From positions 1 to 64,000 of the IMG/VR virus record IMGVR_UViG_3300033153_006243: 64,000 bases of DNA. One strand, written 5' to 3'. A model generated the notes under the pieces. The model made no database searches and was not told the DNA's origin. It was given only the letters and a program-made list of their open reading frames with translations. Source of the DNA: a virus. A program made the position numbers and the translations under genes. Each line of letters begins with the position of its first letter. The first letter of the stretch is position 1. This document shows positions 17,929 through 46,652 of the stretch, piece after piece.

Positions 17929-19128
17929 ATGAGAATCTCTAAATCCTATAAGACGGAACTTAGGCCGACTGAAGCCCAGGCTAAACGTTTCTCGCAGTGG
18001 GCGGAGGCGGTCAATCTCGTCTATAATCTTGCGCTCCGGGCAAGGAAGGATGCGTGGGAGAAGGAGAAGAAGACTCTCGGATGGTACGAGCAAAGCAAAC
18101 AACTTACCCAGTTTAAGAGGATCGGGAAGTTTGCCACGCTTAGAGATGTTCCGTCAAGCACCCTTGAATTTCCTCTTCGTAAGGTGGATTTAGCCTACCG
18201 AAACTTCTTTCGTCGAATCAAAAGAGGGGAGAAGCCGGGCTTTCCGAAGATGAAGCCGGAAAAGGGATATAGGAACTCATTTAAGCTGAGAAGCACTATT
18301 CACGTTGACGAGGATGCAATCAAGCTTCCGAAGGTAGGATGGGTTCGGTTAAAGGAGAAGGGATACCTGCCGACCGAAGGGATTAAGATTCTTTCAGCTA
18401 CGGTATCCGAAAAGGTAGGGAGGTGGTTCGTAAGCCTCAACTTCGAGCAGGAGATTGAAATTGAAAAGGCGGAAGGGCCGCCGATTGGAATCGACTTAGG
18501 TATAACCTCCCTTGCGGTGGTGTCGGACGGTAGGAGATTCGAGAACCCGAAGGCGCTGAAGAGAAGCCAAAAAAGACTGGTACGATTCCAAAAGGAATGG
18601 AGCAGGCGGAAACCGGGGAGCAAGAATAGGGAGAAGACAAGGCAGAAGATAGAAAAGCTCCATTATAGGATTGCCAATCTCCGTAAGGACGTTTTGCATA
18701 AGGCGACGAGCGAGATAACGGGAAAGAGGCTGTCGCCGGAGGAAAGGCCAAGAACGATAGGGATGGAGACGTTAAACGTCAAGGGGATGGTAAAGAATAG
18801 GCATCTAGCTAGGGCGATCTCCGATGTAGGTATGGCCGAGTTTAGGCGGCAGATGGAGTATAAGGCGGAATGGCGCGGTGAGGAGATTATCCTTGCCGAT
18901 AGATTCTTCCCGTCGTCGAAGAAATGCTCCGCCTGCGGATGGGTAAATAGGGAACTGAAGCTAGGCGATAGGAAATGGACTTGTGTTGAATGCGGCGTAG
19001 AGCACGATAGGGACTTGAACGCCGCGATGAATCTAAGGGATATAGCTACCGCTGGGTCGGCGGAATGTAACGCCTCTGGAGGCGAGGAAGTATCTTCGTC
19101 CATGAAGGAGGAATTTCAATATGTTTGA
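17929..19128 (+). CDS. tnpB: TnpB RNA-guided endonuclease (IS200/IS605/IS607 OrfB family); no tnpA in window
   Basis: HTH N-terminus YKTELRPT, RuvC-I GIDLG, RuvC-II METLN, Zn finger CSAC/CVEC, RuvC-III DRDLNAA; catalytic D/E/D intact. Confidence 0.95.
   Translation: MRISKSYKTELRPTEAQAKRFSQWAEAVNLVYNLALRARKDAWEKEKKTLGWYEQSKQLTQFKRIGKFATLRDVPSSTLEFPLRKVDLAYRNFFRRIKRGEKPGFPKMKPEKGYRNSFKLRSTIHVDEDAIKLPKVGWVRLKEKGYLPTEGIKILSATVSEKVGRWFVSLNFEQEIEIEKAEGPPIGIDLGITSLAVVSDGRRFENPKALKRSQKRLVRFQKEWSRRKPGSKNREKTRQKIEKLHYRIANLRKDVLHKATSEITGKRLSPEERPRTIGMETLNVKGMVKNRHLARAISDVGMAEFRRQMEYKAEWRGEEIILADRFFPSSKKCSACGWVNRELKLGDRKWTCVECGVEHDRDLNAAMNLRDIATAGSAECNASGGEEVSSSMKEEFQYV
19047..19119 (+). ncRNA. Cognate omegaRNA / right end overlapping the tnpB 3' end (copy C)
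   Basis: ACCGCTGGGTCGGCGG hairpin, GCCTCTGGAG...GAAGGAGGAA, followed by TTTCAA. Confidence 0.7.
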
Positions 19129-20907: not shown

Positions 20908-21228
20908 AACCGGAGCCACGGGTTGTAAAGAAAATCAAAGTTGATGGTATAGACCTAACAAAGGAACCTTCAGCGGGGTTTAGAGTTCTGTGCCCTGGAT
21001 GCGGGGAGCCCCAAAGCCAACTATGGGAACGCCATACCCCCGGATGCCCGGAGGCTCCGGCGGACTTCGTAGTTAAGTGGGAACAGGCGACCGGGAAGCA
21101 ATGGCCGGAGAGAATGGCTGAGAAGGGAGGGGACCGACGTGAATAATGTGAAACTATTGGCTGTAAAAACCCCCGTAATATATCTAAAAAGGCGGTTTTG
21201 GCTTCTATCATATAGGTAGGAATTCTGC

Positions 21229-21960
21229 AATCTGTAAATGGCCGAGAAACGACTTATAGTTCGCTTTTAGGCCGGAAAGGATTAGTATTCTGGCTTTGCA
21301 CGAAGAGGCATAAATAATTTGGTTTTGGCTGAGAAGACGAGAATGATTTGTTTCTAGCTGGAAAGGTAGGAATAATCTGCTTTTAGGCCGGGAACTAGAA
21401 CCGTTTTGTTTTCAGGGAGGGAAGCAAGAATAATTTGTATTTAGTTAGAAAAACGAAACCGATCTGCTTTTGGGCTAAAAAATAGGAAGGATATACTTTT
21501 TGGTTAGAAACGAGGAATATATTGCTTTCGGGCTCAAAAGCAAAAGTGATCTGCTTTTAGGCCGGGGACTAAGAGTATTCTCCTTTTGGACGGAGGATTA
21601 GAACTGATCTGCTTTTTGTCAAGAAGCCAGAAGCGATCTGTTTTTGAGGCAAAAGGGAAAAGTAAAATGTTTTTGAGGCAAAAGGGAAAAGTAAAATGTT
21701 TTTGAGGCAAAAGGGAAAAGTAAAATGTTTTTGGCCAGAAAAGTAGAATTGATCTGTTTTTAGGTAAAGTGGCAAAAATGATTTATTTTGGGCCGAAAAG
21801 AGGAAACTATTCGTTTTTGGGTAAGAAGGTAAAAATGATCCACTTTTGGGTAGGAAACGGAAAATGATCCGCCTTTTGAGGGAAAGACGAAACCGATCCA
21901 CTTTTGGGCTGGAGAACAAAAGCGATCTATTTTTAAGGAAGAAACCAAAAACGATATATT
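21229..21960. repeat. About 25 degenerate tandem units with a 29-bp period (approximately GATCTGYTTTTRGGYNRRAAARNNRRAAN)
   Basis: Manual phasing; near-exact tandem TGTTTTTGAGGCAAAAGGGAAAAGTAAAA at 21639-21725; non-coding. Confidence 0.85.
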
Positions 21961-22047
21961 CCTTTGTGAGCTATTTCGATAAACCGCTCTAACGGTAGCG
22001 TAAGGGGGGTTTTTGGGATGAAAAGTATCAAGTTTTAGGAGAGGGGC

Positions 22048-24507
22048 ATGATAACGCTCCATCTCGGCGACTGCCTGGAAGTATTAGGGACGCTGGAGGA
22101 GAATAGCGTGGATACGGTGATTACCGATCCCCCGTATGAACTTGGCTTCATGGGGAAGAAATGGGATGGTACGGGAGTCTCCTTCCAGAAAGAGACGTGG
22201 AAGGCGGTGCTTAGGGTAGCGAAACCGGGGGCGACGATGCTGTGCTTTGGGGGAACGAGGACATGGCATCGGCTGGCTTGTGCGGCAGAGGACGCGGGAT
22301 GGCAAATAAGGGATACATGCATGTTTTTGTACGGATCTGGATTTCCAAAATCTTTATCAATATCGAAGCAACTGGATAAGCAGGAGCGGGATAAGTGGTT
22401 GAAAGTAGAGAAGGCAACTTACGATATCAACAAACATACTGTAATGGTAGCATGGAAAGAGAACTCAAGAACTGCGAAGTCTGCGGGGCTACTATTCGCA
22501 AAGAATGGAATCGGAACTGGAATGAATACGCCAAAAAGCGATTTTGTTCTAGGAAATGCAATGCTATCAATCAATCCCAAAAAATCAAGTGTAAATGCGA
22601 TCATTGCGGAACTATCTTTGAACGTTCCCCATCACATCTACGACAAAAGAAATGGGTATTCTGTTCCAGAGAATGTAGACATAAGCACCTATCGGTCGAA
22701 GCCATCTGCGGAATTTGTGGTAAGCAAGCAACCGTGCCTAGAAGTAGGGCCAGCGGAAAGTATTATTGTTCCCGTCAATGTATGGGGTTGGCAAAGCGGA
22801 AATACAATGGGCAATCTCAAGGCCGTCGAAGCCCTGAGGATTTGGCTTGGAAGCAAAAAGTCCTCAAGGACGCAAACTATAAATGTGCTATGTGCGGCAT
22901 TGACCGACGACTTGAAGCACATCATATTAAGTCAATCAAAGACTTTCCAAACCTTCGACACGATCCAACAAATGGAATGTGTGTCTGCCATGAATGTCAT
23001 TATTACGGAATCCACGGCGGAGCACCTAATTTCATTCATGGTCGATATGCTAAGAAGTAAAGCTATTGATAAGGCGAAAGGAGCGAAAAGGAAAGTGGTA
23101 GGTAAATCCCGCTCAATAGATTGTATCGAGCGTGGGTATACCAAAGAGTACAGTACGAAGGCGGAAAATAGTGGTTACGGAACATCTCGCCAATTTGGGC
23201 TTGGCCTCCCCATCACCGCCCCCGCGACCGATCTCGCCAAGCAATGGAATGGATGGGGTAGTTCCCTTAAGCCCGCATGGGAACCTATACTTGTATGCAT
23301 GAAACCATTAGACGGGACATACGCGGAAAATGCAGAAAAGCATGGTGTGGCTGGATTGAATATCGATGGGGGAAGGATAGAGATACAAGGTAATCCATAT
23401 AAGCAGGGGTTTAGAAAGGGAATCTATGTTGATAATTACGAAGCGACCTCTTGGAGGCTACGGAAGAATGGAATCCCGCATACAAAGCTCCCGCACACTC
23501 AAGGCCGCTGGCCCGCGAATCTGATACTCTCCCATTCCCTCGAATGCCGCCAAGTCGGGGAACAATGGGAATGTGCTGAGGGCTGCCCGGTGAGGATGCT
23601 AGACGAGCAGAGCGGGGAGCTGGATGGAAGAGGGAATAAGGGGCCTAGTATATCAAGGGCGGATGTATATGGATTCACTTTTGTTCATAGCTGCGGAGGG
23701 GAATTCTCTCGTGGCGATTCGGGCGGAGCATCTCGATTCTTCTACTGTGCGAAGGCGTCGAGGAAGGAACGGAATATGGGGCTTAACAGCATACATACGA
23801 TAAAGTATAATGTAGGCAAGTCAACTTTAGGGGGCTTGTTATGCAAAGACGTAAGTATGGTACTGGTAGCATTTCTCGAAAAGGCTACATCAGGATCAAT
23901 GGTCAGATGGCTCATCGACGAGTCTGGCGAAAGCATCATGGGCCTGTGCCCGTCGGATTCTTTATCCACCACATTGATGGGGATAAGCAAAATAACCGAA
24001 TCGAAAATCTCAGACTTATTGATGCCCTTACTCACAAAAGACTGCATACCGGATGTGAATTGCGGAACGGGGAATGGTGGAAGCCCTGCCGCAAGTGTGG
24101 AGAGTTCAAGCAAGTCTCAACGGACTATTATAAGCGAAAGCCAAGCGGGATTAGTCCGTGGTGTAAAAGCTGTTGCGTTGCCAATGCTGTCTATAATAAG
24201 CGACGCCGCAAACTGGAAGCCGCTAACCAATACACATAGTACAGTAAAGCCTCTTGCCCTCCTAGATTACCTCTGTAAGCTGACTAAGACGCCTACGGGG
24301 GGAATCGTTCTCGACCCGTTTATGGGTAGCGGGACTACGGGGATAGCGGCGATCAGGATGGGTAGGAAATTCATAGGTATCGAGAAGGATAAGGAGTCGT
24401 TTGAGATAGCGAAGATGAGGATAGAGGCGGCGAAACCGGAGGCGGAGGCGATTAGGTTGGGGATAAAGCCGGAGAATCACCTGCCGGGGATTAAGCCGCT
24501 GTTCTGA
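22048..24507 (+). CDS. DNA N6A/N4C methyltransferase (beta class) with two large insertions
   Basis: TDPPY, YGSGFPKS, LKPAWEPI, GRWPAN, SRFFYCAKAS, H.TVKP, DPFMGSGTT. Confidence 0.9.
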   Translation: MITLHLGDCLEVLGTLEENSVDTVITDPPYELGFMGKKWDGTGVSFQKETWKAVLRVAKPGATMLCFGGTRTWHRLACAAEDAGWQIRDTCMFLYGSGFPKSLSISKQLDKQERDKWLKVEKATYDINKHTVMVAWKENSRTAKSAGLLFAKNGIGTGMNTPKSDFVLGNAMLSINPKKSSVNAIIAELSLNVPHHIYDKRNGYSVPENVDISTYRSKPSAEFVVSKQPCLEVGPAESIIVPVNVWGWQSGNTMGNLKAVEALRIWLGSKKSSRTQTINVLCAALTDDLKHIILSQSKTFQTFDTIQQMECVSAMNVIITESTAEHLISFMVDMLRSKAIDKAKGAKRKVVGKSRSIDCIERGYTKEYSTKAENSGYGTSRQFGLGLPITAPATDLAKQWNGWGSSLKPAWEPILVCMKPLDGTYAENAEKHGVAGLNIDGGRIEIQGNPYKQGFRKGIYVDNYEATSWRLRKNGIPHTKLPHTQGRWPANLILSHSLECRQVGEQWECAEGCPVRMLDEQSGELDGRGNKGPSISRADVYGFTFVHSCGGEFSRGDSGGASRFFYCAKASRKERNMGLNSIHTIKYNVGKSTLGGLLCKDVSMVLVAFLEKATSGSMVRWLIDESGESIMGLCPSDSLSTTLMGISKITESKISDLLMPLLTKDCIPDVNCGTGNGGSPAASVESSSKSQRTIISESQAGLVRGVKAVALPMLSIISDAANWKPLTNTHSTVKPLALLDYLCKLTKTPTGGIVLDPFMGSGTTGIAAIRMGRKFIGIEKDKESFEIAKMRIEAAKPEAEAIRLGIKPENHLPGIKPLF
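22395..23060 (+). CDS. HNH endonuclease nested in the -1 frame of the methyltransferase (insert 1)
   Basis: SD AGGAG before GTG; CxxC and FCSRxC repeats; CAMC...LEAHHIKS...NGMCVCHECH. Confidence 0.85.
   Translation: MVESREGNLRYQQTYCNGSMERELKNCEVCGATIRKEWNRNWNEYAKKRFCSRKCNAINQSQKIKCKCDHCGTIFERSPSHLRQKKWVFCSRECRHKHLSVEAICGICGKQATVPRSRASGKYYCSRQCMGLAKRKYNGQSQGRRSPEDLAWKQKVLKDANYKCAMCGIDRRLEAHHIKSIKDFPNLRHDPTNGMCVCHECHYYGIHGGAPNFIHGRYAKK
23783..23811 (+). promoter_or_regulatory. sigma70 promoter inside the methyltransferase CDS, upstream of nested HNH 2
   Basis: TTAACA-17 bp-TATAAT, 30 nt before ATG 23841; SD AGGGGG. Confidence 0.7.
23841..24239 (+). CDS. HNH endonuclease nested in the -1 frame of the methyltransferase (insert 2)
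   Basis: GYIRI, AHRRVW, IHHIDGDKQNNRIENL, C-terminal CRKC...CKSC. Confidence 0.88.
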   Translation: MQRRKYGTGSISRKGYIRINGQMAHRRVWRKHHGPVPVGFFIHHIDGDKQNNRIENLRLIDALTHKRLHTGCELRNGEWWKPCRKCGEFKQVSTDYYKRKPSGISPWCKSCCVANAVYNKRRRKLEAANQYT

Positions 24508-24832
24508 GGAAAACGAAGGATGATTAAGGAATTCGAGGACGGAAGGGTGCAGATAGAGTTAGATACCGATAGGGATCCCTTCGGGTGGATATCGTGGAAG
24601 GGCACTGATGTATGTATGACTATCAAGTGTACTAAGTGCGGGTTCACGGGGCATGTGGATGCAGAGGGGGCCTATTTCGTCCGTTGCGCCGTATGTGGCC
24701 AGATGTATAGGGTACTTGGCTTCGTTATCCTTCAGGCCGTAGATACCCTACCGGAATGGATGGGGGAGGATGGGGAACGGATAGCGGATTCTGGTATCGA
24801 AAAGGAGGAAATAGAGGAAGCAAAGCAAGACT

Positions 24833-25189
24833 ATGAGAGGTGAGGTGATGAGGAGAAGGTTTGCACTATATGTTATTATGGTACTCTTACTGGCATTGGG
24901 GGCGTGTGCAGAGAAGCGGGAAGAGAAAATTGACGGAATATATAAGGGTTCAGTCTTTGTCGCCGGATATATGATGAACTACTTGAGTTCACAACCCGCA
25001 CGATGCCATGTACTGGTTTTAATCGACGGTATAGAGAAAGTCTATACGTTTTCCTACCAGTCGGCAGAGGTAGCATGGTTGAAGCTTAAGAACTGCCCCA
25101 ATGGGACGCCTGTAACCGTGATCATGGTAGGCGATAAATTTCGCGGACTAGAATGGAGTAGAGGTGATTATTACGACGGTAAACGGTAA
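24833..25189 (+). CDS. Putative lipoprotein
   Basis: Lipobox LGAC after a hydrophobic stretch. Confidence 0.5.
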   Translation: MRGEVMRRRFALYVIMVLLLALGACAEKREEKIDGIYKGSVFVAGYMMNYLSSQPARCHVLVLIDGIEKVYTFSYQSAEVAWLKLKNCPNGTPVTVIMVGDKFRGLEWSRGDYYDGKR

Positions 25190-26430
25190 GTTTCGCATTA
25201 GGAATAGAGGAAGGAAGAAGGATGAAGGAAATAGGTAGGATAGAGATCTGTAGTATATCTAAGGGGGATGTAAGTAGGAAGTGTGAATGGATGGATAGGG
25301 GGGACTATAACAAACAAGATTATGTTAGATGTCTCAATCCCGCCGTCCGTGAGATTAGTACGGTACATATAAGCGATAGCGAGCAGGGAAAGGAACGTCC
25401 GGGCGGCGTATTTCGTATCGCCGTCTGCATGGAACATACGGAAGATGCGGTTATTGGCGGGCTTAACGCCCTACGTGGATGTTATCTACTACTGTCGGAT
25501 GAGAAGGAGGAAGAGAAATGAACGGGATGGATAGGAGTATGATAATGGAGACGTATAAGTTTGGTAGGACCCCTATCGAGATATGGAGGCATTGTGATAC
25601 GGGGGAGGAGATCCGGCTAGAGCCAAAGAGGGATAAGATTGACTACTGGGGGATGAGTTTCGCCGCGGAGGTGAAGTATTGGGAGGCGAAGGAGGAGGAG
25701 TATAGCCTAATCGGGCTAGGGACGAGCCAAAGACTGGCTATCGAGGACCTACGGAGAAAGATAGAGAAGGAGAACGCCGCTTAGGAACGTAGAGAGAGGA
25801 GGACGGGGGAATGAAGACAAACATCCTATGCAAGGAGATTAGGCAGGTGGCCACGGGATTCATCGTAGAGGCGCAATGGCCTACTGGAGGGGAGCCGGGC
25901 GGATACGGAGAGGTGATCTGTAAGGATATGGAGGAGGTTATCCGCGTACTGAAGGACTGCCAATGTGTAGATGTAGATGAGGAAATCGTGAACGAAGAAC
26001 CTGAAGAACGAACAACTAGCGAACTCCTACGTAAATTGGAAACCACGATGTTATTGTGGAGGGGGCCGTATGATCATAGGGATTTCGAGGAAGTGATACG
26101 TAGGATTGTAGCGCTCTTGCGGCGGCTATATGATAAGAGATGCTGTGTAAAGGCTGCGGAACGGAGATGAAGGAGAGGGAACCGAACATTGGGGCGGGAA
26201 TCCTAGGGAGCCTATTGGAGATATTCGATTGTCCCAAATGCAGTATGGGATACGCCGGTGGTGCGTGGTGCTATAGCGATAAGAGGGAAGAGGAGATAAG
26301 AAGGGAACTGGAACGGAACAATGAGGATACAAAAGAATGAATACGCTACCTAACATTCCCAAGCTACCCCACATTACACTATAGTGCAATACATAGTAGC
26401 TCTATAGCATAGAATACGAAAAGGAATATC

Positions 26431-31444: not shown

Positions 31445-32848
31445 GTGAAAGTTCTCCTAATTGCCTATGACAATGGTTCCTTCATTCACCACTTCCCTTT
31501 GGGTTTGGGGTATATTGCATCGGCCCTGCGGGAGGCGGGGCATGATGTGGAGATATACAACCAGGATAAGAACCATTGGCCCGACCAGCACCTAGCAACC
31601 TATCTCTATCATAATCCAGTTGACGTGGTGGGTCTTGGAATCATCGCGGGCTATTATCAATACCAGAAGATACTGGCGATCTCAAAGGCCGTTATGGAGG
31701 CGAGAAGCGCGGGAGTAGAATTCCTTTACGTCCTTGGTGGGCACGGCCCCTCACCAGAGCCGGAGTTCTTCCTGAAGAAGACGGGCGCGGACGTAGTGGT
31801 ATTAGGCGAGGGCGAGAGAACCTTTGTTGAGCTTCTCGATGCGGAGAAGCAGGGGATAGGGAGGGAAGCCGTAAATGGCATCTATTTTCTGGCGGAGGAT
31901 GGGACGGGGGTAAAAACGGCAGCAAGGCCGCTTATCTCAAATATTGATGGGATTCCGTGGCCCGCGTGGGACCTATTCCCGATGGACTATTATTCCCTCA
32001 TACGGCTATCCCATACGGCGAATGAGGATAGGGTGGCGGCGGTAGTCTCCGCCCGCGGCTGCCCGTTCAAATGTAATTTCTGCTATCGGCTGGATAAGGG
32101 AATCCGGTTGCGGTCGCCTGAACCTATCGTTACGGAGATGCAGGAATTAAGGTCGAAATACGGAATGAACTACTTTGGCTTTCTTGATGAGCTTTTGATG
32201 TTTGGTGAACAAAGGACAATAGCGGTCTCGAATGCGATTGAGGAAGCTTTCTTCGGATCGGTTAAGTGGGCATGTAATGGGCGGCTGAATTACGCTACCC
32301 CGAAGGTACTTAAGGCAATGAAGGATTCGGGATGCGTGGAAATCAATTATGGCGTGGAGTGCTTCGACGACGAGGTTCTAAGGAGAATGAATAAGCAGCT
32401 TACTACGAGGCAGATTGAGGAGGGGACTAAGGCAACGCTTGATTCGGGCATAACTCCGACGCTTAACGTTATGTTCGGGAATCTCGGCGAGACTGAGGAA
32501 ACGCTATGGAAGACCGTCGAGTTCATGTTGAAGTATGATCCGCATGAGACCCTACGGACGATAAGGCCGCTGACCCCCTATCCCGGCTCCCCGCTTTACT
32601 ATCAGGCGATTGAGATGGGACTGCTCGAAGGGCCGGAGGACTTCTATGAGAACAAGCATACTAATTCCGATCTAATGAGCGTGAACTTTACCGACATACC
32701 CGATGATAGATTCTATGAGCTTCTCCTTCAGGCGAACGGAATGCTAATTGAGAAATACTACGAGCGCCAGAGAGAGCGGAACGAAGAGGTGCTTGATTCC
32801 CTATATCGAAAAAAGGATGCTAGCTTTAGGGGGTTCAGGCAGACATGA
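31445..32848 (+). CDS. B12-binding radical SAM enzyme (class B methyltransferase-like)
   Basis: PLGLGYIAS, GGHGPS, GEGE, RGCPFKCNFC, TPYPGS. Confidence 0.92.
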   Translation: MKVLLIAYDNGSFIHHFPLGLGYIASALREAGHDVEIYNQDKNHWPDQHLATYLYHNPVDVVGLGIIAGYYQYQKILAISKAVMEARSAGVEFLYVLGGHGPSPEPEFFLKKTGADVVVLGEGERTFVELLDAEKQGIGREAVNGIYFLAEDGTGVKTAARPLISNIDGIPWPAWDLFPMDYYSLIRLSHTANEDRVAAVVSARGCPFKCNFCYRLDKGIRLRSPEPIVTEMQELRSKYGMNYFGFLDELLMFGEQRTIAVSNAIEEAFFGSVKWACNGRLNYATPKVLKAMKDSGCVEINYGVECFDDEVLRRMNKQLTTRQIEEGTKATLDSGITPTLNVMFGNLGETEETLWKTVEFMLKYDPHETLRTIRPLTPYPGSPLYYQAIEMGLLEGPEDFYENKHTNSDLMSVNFTDIPDDRFYELLLQANGMLIEKYYERQRERNEEVLDSLYRKKDASFRGFRQT

Positions 32849-44470: not shown

Positions 44471-45316
44471 GTGGCAGTAGGTACTTATGCGTTGACTACG
44501 CTGGATAACCTAAAGCTCCATCTCGAAATCTCCGCCTCCTCTGATGATTCGCTATTAGAGGATCTGATAGACAAGGCTACGGACATGATCGAGCGGGAAA
44601 CACACCGCTTGCTCATGTCCCGTAGTTACACGAAGGAGCAGTACAACGGGAATGGATGGGGTGATCTTATCCTCCGTCAATATCCCGTGACCGCCGTAGC
44701 TAGGCTAGCAATCGGGGAGGCTACGGCCCTGACTATTAAGGGGACTACGGCAAGCGTTACACAGGCGCTCGTCAACGTGACCTCTACGGCAGTAAACTGC
44801 ATCGAGGTAGCTTCAACGACGACGACGAACGAGATCGACTTCGCGACTTACGCGACGCTGGCGGATGTGAATACTGCGATCAACGCGCTTGCGAATTGGT
44901 CATCGACGGTGGTCTCGGCCTATTCCGGGTTTGTCTCTTCGGAACTTATTCAGCAGGGCGGGCTTAACGCGAGGAACGGGACGGCAGTATCTCTCCTGAT
45001 TCCCAACCGGGGGGAAAACAGTTTTGACGTAGACTGGGATAGGGGAATAATCTCCGTCGATTCCGGGTTCACGAAGGGGGAAAGGATCTGGATTGATTAC
45101 ACAGCGGGGTATTCGACTATTCCCGACGCGCTGGAGCAGGCATGTATTGACCTCGCCTCGTCGCTTTATCATAGCAGGGATAAGGATCTCGGCGTAGCGT
45201 CTGAGAAGATAGGTGACTATTCCTATTCCCGCGCATCAGGAGTAGGCAGCGTGGACATTCCCGATAGAGTGAAAAGGGCACTTGGGCCGTTTACGAAATA
45301 CACACCGTTCGGATAA
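44471..45316 (+). CDS. Head-tail connector (gp6-like)
   Basis: LTTL..LK.HL, YTAGY..IP.ALEQAC, SEKIGDYSYS. Confidence 0.85.
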   Translation: MAVGTYALTTLDNLKLHLEISASSDDSLLEDLIDKATDMIERETHRLLMSRSYTKEQYNGNGWGDLILRQYPVTAVARLAIGEATALTIKGTTASVTQALVNVTSTAVNCIEVASTTTTNEIDFATYATLADVNTAINALANWSSTVVSAYSGFVSSELIQQGGLNARNGTAVSLLIPNRGENSFDVDWDRGIISVDSGFTKGERIWIDYTAGYSTIPDALEQACIDLASSLYHSRDKDLGVASEKIGDYSYSRASGVGSVDIPDRVKRALGPFTKYTPFG

Positions 45317-45341
45317 GGGAATTTCTTATGGGGCACTCTAC

Positions 45342-46652
45342 ATGAAACAGCGGACTTCGGGCGTTACGAAAACCTTGGGGCGGCACAAGAATAGGCCGAG
45401 GAGACTGAGGGGGAAGAAATTCCACCTCTTCCTTCGTTCCCATCAGGCGGATGACTACTGGCCCCTGTATAGCGAATTGCTAAAAGAGGGGGCGATCCCG
45501 CAGTTTATCGAGATACAGCGGTCGCGTCCGGACGACGATGCGAACGCAGCGTTCCTCGCGAATAAAGGAATCCCGCTATTCAGTACGACGTGGGAGGAGC
45601 CGCAGGAGTTCTCGGCGAGTATGGTCCAGGAGAACTATAACGGTTTCGACATCGAGGGGATAACCAAGTTCGCCCGTTGGCGCTGGCGTAGAGGCGGAGC
45701 CAAGATGGACTATATCATCCTTGCCAGAACCAACTGGATTCTACACCGATACGAGAAGTTCTTTAAGGAGAATAGACCGGACTACATAGTGACCTGGGGG
45801 GATATGGCCCATGACTCCGCAGCGATCAAGGCGCTTGCGGACAAACTGAAAATCCCCCATTTGCTTTTCGAGGGGGGGTTCCTGCCGAACTCTATGTGCC
45901 TTGACGGCGGGGGGATGTATTACACGCCGGAAAGCGACTGGAATGGGATATGGGAAAACCAAAGCGAACCTACGGCGGACGAGAGGATACGAATTAAGAA
46001 GCTGATGGATCAGTGGCGGCAAAAGGATATGTCGAAATACAATAACAAGACCGCCTTTACCGAAATCGAAACGGGGGTAGATTGTAGGGCACTGGCCCCG
46101 AAGGGTAAGAAGATCATGCTTATCGTCTGCCAGACTACTGGGGATGCAACGATGTATTTCCCACGGGTCCTGGTGGATAACAAGCTCTCCCTGACGAATC
46201 TCGTTCTTCGGACGATGGCGGGGATGACGGACTGGCATATTTTGGTCAAGCCCCATCCCCATGAGCGGCACGACGACTTGGCTTTGATGGTTAATCCCTA
46301 CGAGGGCATCGACATTATCCCAAAGGCGTCGCCGCATTCCGCTTTGAGGGCGGCAGATATGGTTATTACGATTAACTCGACGATGGGATTCGAGGCGTTG
46401 GGGTACGGAATCCCGGTGATAACCTTTGGGGACAACTTCTATACGGGAAAGGGGCTGACATGGGATATAAGGCGGGCGGATAGGCGACTGAAGGAACAGC
46501 TTCGTACTGCAATAGATCAGGCGAAGCCGCCAGATATGAACGAAGTGTACTCCCTGTTTAATCTAGTCGCGTATAAGTTCCTATTCCTCTTCGGCTATAA
46601 CAACGGGAGGCTGATAGATGCAGCCAAAAGCGCTCGTCAACATTGTAGGTGA
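45342..46652 (+). CDS. Capsular polysaccharide biosynthesis KpsS/KpsC-like glycosyltransferase
   Basis: FEGGFLP, Q...D, VKPHP, TINSTMGFEAL..G.PV. Confidence 0.8.
   Translation: MKQRTSGVTKTLGRHKNRPRRLRGKKFHLFLRSHQADDYWPLYSELLKEGAIPQFIEIQRSRPDDDANAAFLANKGIPLFSTTWEEPQEFSASMVQENYNGFDIEGITKFARWRWRRGGAKMDYIILARTNWILHRYEKFFKENRPDYIVTWGDMAHDSAAIKALADKLKIPHLLFEGGFLPNSMCLDGGGMYYTPESDWNGIWENQSEPTADERIRIKKLMDQWRQKDMSKYNNKTAFTEIETGVDCRALAPKGKKIMLIVCQTTGDATMYFPRVLVDNKLSLTNLVLRTMAGMTDWHILVKPHPHERHDDLALMVNPYEGIDIIPKASPHSALRAADMVITINSTMGFEALGYGIPVITFGDNFYTGKGLTWDIRRADRRLKEQLRTAIDQAKPPDMNEVYSLFNLVAYKFLFLFGYNNGRLIDAAKSARQHCR

Follow-up and report, generated by a model that had tools for sequence, protein, structure and literature searches.

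Free-standing homing endonuclease genes of phages, such as the seg and mob genes of T4 and F-CphI, spread by cutting related genomes that lack them, a process called 'intronless homing'. A different arrangement was found in mycobacteriophages, some of whose methylases carry a patchily distributed insertion of 202 amino acids (aa), the 'ShiLan domain' (Gosselin et al. 2023, PMC9957025). According to a later study (Arsenault, Gosselin and Gogarten, Genes 2025, PMC11855218), this domain conceals an HNH gene of 195 aa in the third frame, its stop codon falling within the insertion's final four bases; it contains no host-frame stops and no features of an intron or intein, and its left end resembles the downstream host sequence. 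The same study describes a second case in phage Pacc40 and free-standing relatives located 5' of methylases in other phages; it found no ribosome-binding site for the hidden HNH gene and proposed leaderless translation. Nested HNH genes also appear in the GenBank annotation of methylases from phages Molly, Lamina13, StellaBean, and Applejack. Here we analyze a DNA methyltransferase gene that contains two such hidden HNH genes, in a stretch of 64,000 nucleotides (nt), hereafter the window, that comprises positions 1-64,000 of the 85-kb IMG/VR virus record IMGVR_UViG_3300033153_006243 and encodes the portal, capsid, and tape-measure proteins of a tailed phage. We consider it probable that the two are independent read-through HNH homing cassettes, carried in a single methyltransferase gene whose frame is kept open, with no splicing. 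The observation is real and strongly non-random, and the two HNH genes are new lineages of a design that has already been published.

Two HNH genes inside one methyltransferase frame

The methyltransferase gene, its three segments, the two inserts, and the nested genes with their candidate signals are listed here in window coordinates (AF2, AlphaFold2; pLDDT, predicted local distance difference test).

22048-24507, + strand: host open reading frame (ORF), a beta-class N6/N4 DNA methyltransferase of 819 aa, open across both inserts (ORF list, Pfam, alignment, Foldseek)
22048-22368, + strand: methyltransferase segment 1, from motif IV (DPPY) to YGSGFPKSLSISK (aligns with all alleles; AF2 pLDDT 74-94)
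22369-23061, + strand: insert 1, an in-frame HNH cassette of 693 nt, or 231 codons (alignment with empty alleles)
22452-23060, + strand: HNH1, a zinc-ribbon HNH endonuclease gene of 202 aa in the -1 (+2) frame, with an alternative GTG start at 22395 (221-aa ORF, 22395-23060) (Pfam, PHROGs, relatives)
23062-23781, + strand: methyltransferase segment 2, from AIDKAKG through the variable middle region to RFFYCAKASRKERNMG (alignment)
23782-24228, + strand: insert 2, an in-frame HNH cassette of 447 nt, or 149 codons (alignment with empty alleles)
23783-23811, + strand: promoter-like site TTAACA-17-TATAAT, with 11 of 12 consensus matches, read as LNSIHTIKYN in the host frame
23829-23834, + strand: Shine-Dalgarno-like AGGGGG, 6 nt 5' of the HNH2 ATG (read from the sequence)
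23841-24239, + strand: HNH2, an HNH_3 (I-HmuI-like) endonuclease gene of 132 aa in the -1 (+2) frame (Pfam, PHROGs)
24229-24507, + strand: methyltransferase segment 3, with motif X (NTHSTVKP) and motif I (LDPFMGSGTTG), to the stop codon (AF2 pLDDT 86-92)

The ORF list, Pfam, and PHROGs bear out the original prediction of an 819-aa ORF with two HNH ORFs nested in its -1 frame. The two in-frame insertions that it proposed also stand, with their approximate borders (22380-23050 and 23780-24230) refined by allele alignment to those listed; its coordinates for HNH2 were correct, whereas its HNH1 start at the GTG has to be given up for the ATG at 22452, which is kept in 7 relatives from which the extension up to the GTG is absent.

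The Pfam match of the 819-aa ORF is to N6_N4_Mtase (PF01555, 4.8e-31) and is confined to the two ends of the protein. Motif IV (DPPY, residues 27-30) lies upstream and motif I (FxGxG) C-terminal, the AF2 model has a CcrM/RsrI/PvuII-type fold, and both DPPY and LDPFMGSGTTG (pattern LDPF.GSG.T) are invariant across 13 aligned alleles. When the AF2 model was searched with Foldseek the best match was CcrM (6pbd, 3e-7), together with TTHA0409, M.BceJIV, M1.HpyAVI, MboIIA, RsrI, and PvuII, and the model of segment 3 superposes on solved beta-class methyltransferases with a root-mean-square deviation of 1.0-1.4 Å. By family and fold the ORF is a beta-class N6-adenine/N4-cytosine DNA methyltransferase. 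Segment 2 contributes the blocks GWG..LKPA.EP, NIDG, and GRWPANLI, which are conserved in the allele alignment.

The junctions are defined by alleles that are empty at one site or the other (relative loci are given L-numbers here, as labels; ^ marks a junction). At insert 1 the host frame reads YGSGFPKSLSISK^QLDKQ...DMLRSK^AIDKAKG (left flank SISK^QLDKQ), where empty alleles read ...GFPKS..(S/G)K^A(I/V)DK; at insert 2 it reads ...KASRKERNMG^LNSIH...NWKPLT^NTHSTVKP, the preceding segment ending in RFFYCAKASRKERNMG, where empty alleles read ...KKDRGEG^NNHPTVKP (ERN.G^N.HPTVKP type). Insert 1 is missing in L002-L014 and found at the identical site in Escherichia phage BUCT618 and L058-L064; insert 2 is missing in BUCT618, L058, L060, and L061 and found at the identical site in L002-L015 and several contigs of metagenome-assembled genomes (MAGs). 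There are alleles with insert 1 only (BUCT618, L058, L060, L061), alleles with insert 2 only (L002-L013), and the allele of this window with both. HNH1 and HNH2 are of different families, and other alleles have one without the other; the invasions were therefore independent, as had been predicted from the difference between their subfamilies. Two further alleles are more complex: L015:1751-3607 has insert 2 plus a Cys-rich insertion of ~170 aa at the insert 1 site, and in L063:2576-4813, which has insert 1, RFF is followed by a third insertion unlike the other two; the ORF of this allele ends without HPTVKP and FxGxG and may have been split by another element. Besides the two nested genes, no further HNH gene is present in the whole 85-kb record.

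Both HNH genes nearly fill their inserts. HNH1 takes up 609 of the 693 nt of insert 1, with 83 nt before its start codon and its TAA stop within the last 4 nt, and HNH2 takes up 399 nt against the 447 nt of insert 2, with 59 nt of the insert before its start codon and a TAG stop that is formed by the host codons CAT-AGT (His-Ser) of NTHSTVKP, 11 nt beyond the insert border. HNH1 matches Pfam HNH_2 (8.6e-5) and phrog_1271 (2.6e-24), and HNH2 matches Pfam HNH_3 (1.5e-18) and phrog_1891 (7e-16), both PHROGs being annotated as HNH endonuclease. The Cys pairs and the HH..N..H motif of HNH1 are invariant between it and the nested HNH of BUCT618 (66% identical), and in HNH2 the residues H43, H44, N52, N56, H65, and H69, as well as four Cys, do not vary among 12 relatives. 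With a catalytic motif, flanking Cys pairs, and matches to curated models, both are HNH (His-Me finger) endonucleases. PDB sequence searches with HNH1 returned no clear HNH structure (only IcmJ, E-value 0.08), and those with HNH2 returned no match for the single sequence and a weak match to I-HmuI (1u3e, E-value 0.09) for a profile.

Inside the inserts the selected coding frame is the HNH frame, identity falling from codon position 2 to position 1 to position 3 (0.81, 0.78, and 0.61 for HNH1; 0.77, 0.68, and 0.49 for HNH2). The methyltransferase segments that flank them in invaded alleles are under purifying selection in their own frame, with corresponding identities of 0.78, 0.69, and 0.37 in segment 1 and 0.68, 0.60, and 0.31 in segment 3, 3' of insert 2. 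GC skew falls from ~0.3-0.4 in the flanks to ~0.08 within both inserts, which fits foreign DNA.

The two genes differ in their candidate expression signals. The promoter-like site of HNH2 is conserved as TTGACA...TATAAT in L006, L007, L009, and L010 and in the free-standing relative L008, and AGGAGG stands at the place of its Shine-Dalgarno-like site in L006, L009, and L010. A BLAST alignment had offered the left junction of insert 2 as a degenerate duplicate of the methyltransferase C-terminus; we rejected this in favor of the simpler explanation that it is the cassette's own promoter, common to free-standing L008, and the left-hand 'repeat' of the host motif, also seen as GLDSTYTVKYN, coincides with the promoter-like sequence. 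For HNH1 there is a -10-like TGTAAT at 22440-22445, ending 6 nt 5' of the ATG; L060, L061, and L063 have TTGACA-16-(C/T)ATAAT at the corresponding position, which would yield a leaderless HNH1 mRNA, and the BUCT618 branch is without it.

When this locus is set beside the ShiLan type, the likeness extends to nearly every structural feature. The host genes belong to the same Pfam family (PF01555), Molly gp60 being 57% identical to the window methyltransferase over the first 116 aa, and the Molly insert occupies the insert 1 position, immediately following GSGFPKS. In both, an in-frame insertion at a conserved site leaves the host frame stop-free without signs of an intron or intein, a complete zinc-ribbon HNH gene in another frame nearly fills the insertion and stops in its last bases, a degenerate copy of a downstream host motif marks the left junction, and the element is patchily distributed among alleles and less diverged than its host. 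The differences lie in lineage and detail: neither HNH1 nor HNH2 has a mycobacteriophage match at E-values up to 1e-3, and a pairwise comparison with Molly gp61 gives only a short local zinc-ribbon match (E-value 1e-4), so that they are not detectably of the same family; the Molly HNH lies in the +1 frame whereas both of those described here lie in +2; the enzyme of insert 2 is of the HNH_3 type and comes with a sigma-70-like promoter and a Shine-Dalgarno site; the hosts here are not actinobacteriophages; and two hidden HNH genes of different families share one gene. The nearest named relative is BUCT618 (OM735461.1, UOK17941.1), which has the insert 1 lineage at the same site and in the same frame (71% nt identity) with the host frame open; unlike the window it lacks insert 2, with KKDRGEG^NNHPTVKP at that site, and its GenBank record annotates one long methyltransferase and no HNH gene.

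Other known systems share single features with these cassettes. As with free-standing homing genes, the endonuclease gene is autonomous, carries candidate expression signals and would spread by cutting related genomes without it, and L008 is such a free-standing copy beside a methyltransferase gene; free-standing genes, however, sit between genes or split a host gene, and the cassettes lie inside a continuous ORF. Out-of-frame endonucleases have been reported in a cyanobacterial dnaX intein (bioRxiv 10.64898/2026.09.14.751524) and, as endonuclease VII-like genes, in actinophage inteins (bioRxiv 10.1101/2025.01.02.630785), where the endonuclease frame likewise differs from a host frame that must translate the DNA stop-free; there the host-frame product is a self-removing intein, whereas no Hint domain or splice-junction residues are found here. 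Group I introns with HNH ORFs and the T4 gene 60 bypass/mobA cassette (compare bioRxiv 10.1101/2022.08.31.505936) are also neutralized endonuclease-linked mobile insertions in phage genes, but they are spliced out or skipped and contain host-frame stops, and here there is neither a ribozyme match nor a host-frame stop. The suggestion in the original prediction that the elements form a new class does not hold, given that the same design had been published (PMC9957025, PMC11855218) and annotated in GenBank. What is specific to this locus is that a single methyltransferase gene holds two hidden HNH cassettes with no relation to each other, that host codons within insert 2 also spell out a near-consensus promoter and a ribosome-binding site, and that the stop-depletion test has a natural free-standing control; no such test was found in the sections of PMC11855218 consulted.

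Stop depletion in the host frame

Neither insert has a stop in the host frame, and the third frame of the same DNA has 17 stops across insert 1 and 13 across insert 2. We compared this with a null model in which the HNH protein is held fixed and its synonymous codons are redrawn from the usage of the flanking methyltransferase segments, for 19 nested copies (12 HNH2-type and 7 HNH1-type, HNH identity 50-82%) that include the two of the window and 17 other relatives. Host-frame stops number 0 in 19 of 19 copies, against an expectation of 4.4-7.0 and a P(0) of ≤0.004 for each copy (4.6-5.0 stops and 0.003-0.004 for the window's own two); the third frame of the nested copies has 7-23. In the free-standing control, L008, there are 7 stops where 6.5 are expected. 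A null that only permutes each gene's own codons gave a P(0) of 0.02-0.38, and we regard this shuffle as too conservative because the codon usage it permutes is already adapted. The host frame is kept open by selection, through synonymous codon choice in the HNH gene. Openness beyond chance, predicted from a rough per-codon estimate, is thus upheld, as is the proposal that homing-type HNH genes are tolerated by keeping the host frame open, and stops are not common in homologous inserts.

The same pattern recurs well beyond the window. IMG/VR holds 13 close HNH2 loci (50-77% identity), in 12 of which ~300-700 codons are open in the frame +1 to the HNH and code for a methyltransferase of this family that has the insert in the identical place. 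HNH1 relatives could not be found in viral contigs with exact peptide words of the window protein alone, and an alignment that included BUCT618 led to 18 loci; in BUCT618 and seven IMG/VR loci (59-68% identity) the gene is without exception nested where insert 1 lies, and the host frame has 0 stops; distant free-standing HNH1 relatives have 2-10. Among species-representative genomes, nested stop-free copies occur in MAG contigs labelled Deltaproteobacteria, Bacteroidota, Bacillota, Actinomycetota, Cloacimonadota, and Betaproteobacteria. Stops number 1-6 in a clade of 16 free-standing sequences, of which 15 come from MAGs labelled Planctomycetota. One MAG contig labelled Betaproteobacteria (L082:2387-3628) has a nested HNH2-type gene with 0 host-frame stops that precedes the YPTEKP motif of another methyltransferase subfamily, at the equivalent site.

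A homing endonuclease inside a gene therefore has a 'third way', neither intron nor intein, in which the host frame reads through, and this is no peculiarity of mycobacteriophages: within one methyltransferase family the read-through design has been adopted by at least two HNH families that are unrelated, with copies in viral contigs and in MAGs of several labelled phyla. Long 'methyltransferases' with unexplained insertions merit checking in their other frames when genomes are annotated. The presence of the insert 1 lineage in the E. coli phage BUCT618 makes read-through, methylase activity, and homing accessible to routine methods.

Read-through and its alternatives

Purifying selection on the flanking segments, together with intact DPPY and FxGxG motifs, argues that the methyltransferase gene is still used. 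Segment 3 is selected coding sequence that lies in frame behind a selected stop-free insert, and the simplest reading is continuous translation. In the model that we favor, one HNH cassette would have entered directly behind the GFPKS..SK block and the other directly ahead of the HPTVKP block, each as a whole number of codons with synonymous codons that leave the methyltransferase frame stop-free. The ribosome would read straight through to give one 819-aa methyltransferase with passenger peptides of 231 and 149 aa, neither RNA nor protein splicing taking part, and the HNH proteins would be made separately from the -1 frame, HNH2 from its own near-consensus promoter and ribosome-binding site and HNH1, the signals of which are weak, possibly from an internal start or without a leader. 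On the pattern of other homing endonucleases, each HNH would cut the empty methyltransferase allele of a co-infecting phage, and repair would copy the cassette in.

Several points weigh against this model. The conserved ATG of HNH1 lacks a convincing ribosome-binding site, and its promoter-like elements are not kept in all relatives. That the 819-aa protein is made, is stable, and methylates DNA with nothing removed is something we infer from sequence, and a protein-level excision of a kind not yet known would also need an open host frame, such that stop depletion alone is no proof that the peptides are retained. AF2 models of the whole protein, from a 13-sequence alignment, are confident in the methyltransferase core but have a mean pLDDT of 51 and are too poor to position the inserts relative to the DNA cleft. 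Finally, a confident AF2 fold for the host-frame peptide of insert 2 poorly fits a pure 'junk loop'.

This last point raises the question of what the read-through peptides are. Neither has a PHROG or Pfam family match, and the peptide of insert 1 is predicted with a pLDDT of only 25-49. In a model of the C-terminal piece that includes insert 2 and draws on 15 alleles, a large part of the read-through peptide came out as alpha/beta with a pLDDT of 76-90, as might be expected of a folded module, possibly one that tunes the methyltransferase, in which case 447 nt would encode two structured proteins in two frames. We think this unlikely: the model was built on a truncated construct, and the wobble positions of HNH Gly, Pro, and Ala codons, which are second positions in the host frame, vary almost freely (identity 0.22-0.38). 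Pairwise wobble identity had seemed raised in nested copies, but a test within the same codon families gave 0.51 for nested and 0.48 for free-standing copies, and wobble constraint has no clear link to AF2 confidence. As these positions are nearly unconstrained, the AF2 confidence for insert 2 is probably an artefact. The read-through peptides appear to be largely unconstrained passengers, for which we claim no constraint beyond the avoidance of stops.

Removal after translation is a related and decidedly unlikely possibility, in which a non-canonical intein-like element with an out-of-frame endonuclease excises itself or the chain is cut by proteolysis. A stop-free host frame would be required for this as well, inteins with out-of-frame endonucleases exist as noted above, the methyltransferase family hosts true inteins (the metagenomic protein P0006 is intein-like at YG^SGFPKS), and AF2 predicts structure for the insert 2 peptide. 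That structure is helical or mixed and matches no solved fold, however, Foldseek on the C-terminal model aligning only the true methyltransferase C-terminus, and the host-frame second positions at HNH Gly, Pro, and Ala codons vary almost freely. A canonical intein was rejected, as the original prediction had anticipated from the absence of visible termini: Pfam finds no Hint or intein family in the 819-aa protein, and the junction residues are variable, with no conserved nucleophile among them: insert 1 begins with Q, S, R, or N and has Ala at +1, and insert 2 begins with L or V and has N, F, T, or S at +1.

Removal or skipping at the level of RNA or the ribosome seems very improbable, whether the agent were a small ribozyme or intron of a new kind or translational bypassing as in T4 gene 60. 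In its favor, a degenerate repeat of a host motif brackets both inserts (SKQLDK...SKAIDK and HTIKY...HSTVKP), which resembles intron/exon pairing or take-off and landing sites, and PMC11855218 noted the same repeat. The left 'repeat' of insert 2 is nevertheless the cassette promoter that is also present in free-standing L008, and removal of this kind gives no reason for 149-231 stop-free codons in 19 of 19 copies. Group I and group II introns were rejected, again in line with the earlier expectation that a ribozyme would find no room: an Rfam scan of 21000-25500 at E-values up to 1 returned no family, and the 83 and 59 nt before the HNH starts, with HNH stops at or just beyond the 3' borders and nothing after them, fall short of the ~200 nt of a ribozyme core. 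Bypassing, which the original prediction had offered as an alternative, was also discarded. In the T4 gene 60 type a stop stands directly behind the take-off codon, a landing codon matches it, and the coding gap is short; here the host frame is without stops throughout, candidate take-off sites included, a gap would measure 447 or 693 nt, and a bypassed gap would not need to be free of stops.

The read-through model might hold for translation and yet not for function, if the methyltransferase were non-functional and the frame were kept open for another reason, such as protection of the transcript by ribosome traffic, exposure of the HNH start, or avoidance of polarity downstream. PMC11855218 argues that the mycobacteriophage methylase is non-essential, close ShiLan relatives being without it, and HNH1, which lacks clear signals, may depend on expression of the host gene. 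We nonetheless give this little credence, as all segments in invaded alleles have the pattern of purifying selection, DPPY and FxGxG are invariant, and HNH2 has a strong promoter-like site and ribosome-binding site of its own. Chance, by which a T-poor coding strand has few stops so that long alternative-frame ORFs mean little, could point to the strong positive GC and AT skew of the strand and the many spurious ORFs of ≥100 aa around the gene, but it was tested and rejected and can practically be set aside, given that null models from the locus's own codon usage still expect 4.4-7 stops, that the third frame of the same DNA holds 13-17, and that the open frame recurs in the 19 nested copies and fails in free-standing ones.

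Movement of the cassettes and neighboring features

The read-through cassettes may be actively homing, cleaving the empty allele and being copied in; their catalytic residues are intact and their distribution is patchy. HNH2 has a mean identity of 0.66 against an exon identity of 0.52-0.62, and its similarity is uncorrelated with that of the N-terminal segment (rho 0.14, p 0.43) and weakly correlated with that of the adjacent C-terminal segment (rho 0.42, p 0.011), a pattern compatible with transfer plus co-conversion.

The free-standing HNH2 relative in L008 (L008:3001-3396) is 70% identical, keeps the same promoter-like sequence, and lies directly 5' of an unrelated 335-aa N4/N6 methyltransferase gene, with which it overlaps by 17 nt. 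A maximum-likelihood tree places it as sister to nested L002 (support 93/79), and there may have been a single origin; the tree is poorly resolved, and we draw no direction between nested and free-standing copies from it. P0006 (848 aa) combines an HNH2-type read-through insert with a canonical-looking intein, which starts with CLSDDSEV... and ends with ...VTGN^S. The methyltransferase family is a hot spot at which mobile insertions of several kinds collect.

Just 5' of the methyltransferase gene, at 21631-21908, is a tandem array with a 29-bp period, with 3.3 perfect copies at 21639-21733 and more degenerate ones beside them; some of its units include GATC. A TnpB/IS605 OrfB-like gene lies at 17929-19128 (OrfB_IS605, 8e-23; Cas12f1-like TNB, 1.5e-22). 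The phage also encodes a B12-binding radical SAM protein at 31445-32848 and a protein of the capsule-polysaccharide-synthesis family at 45282-46652.

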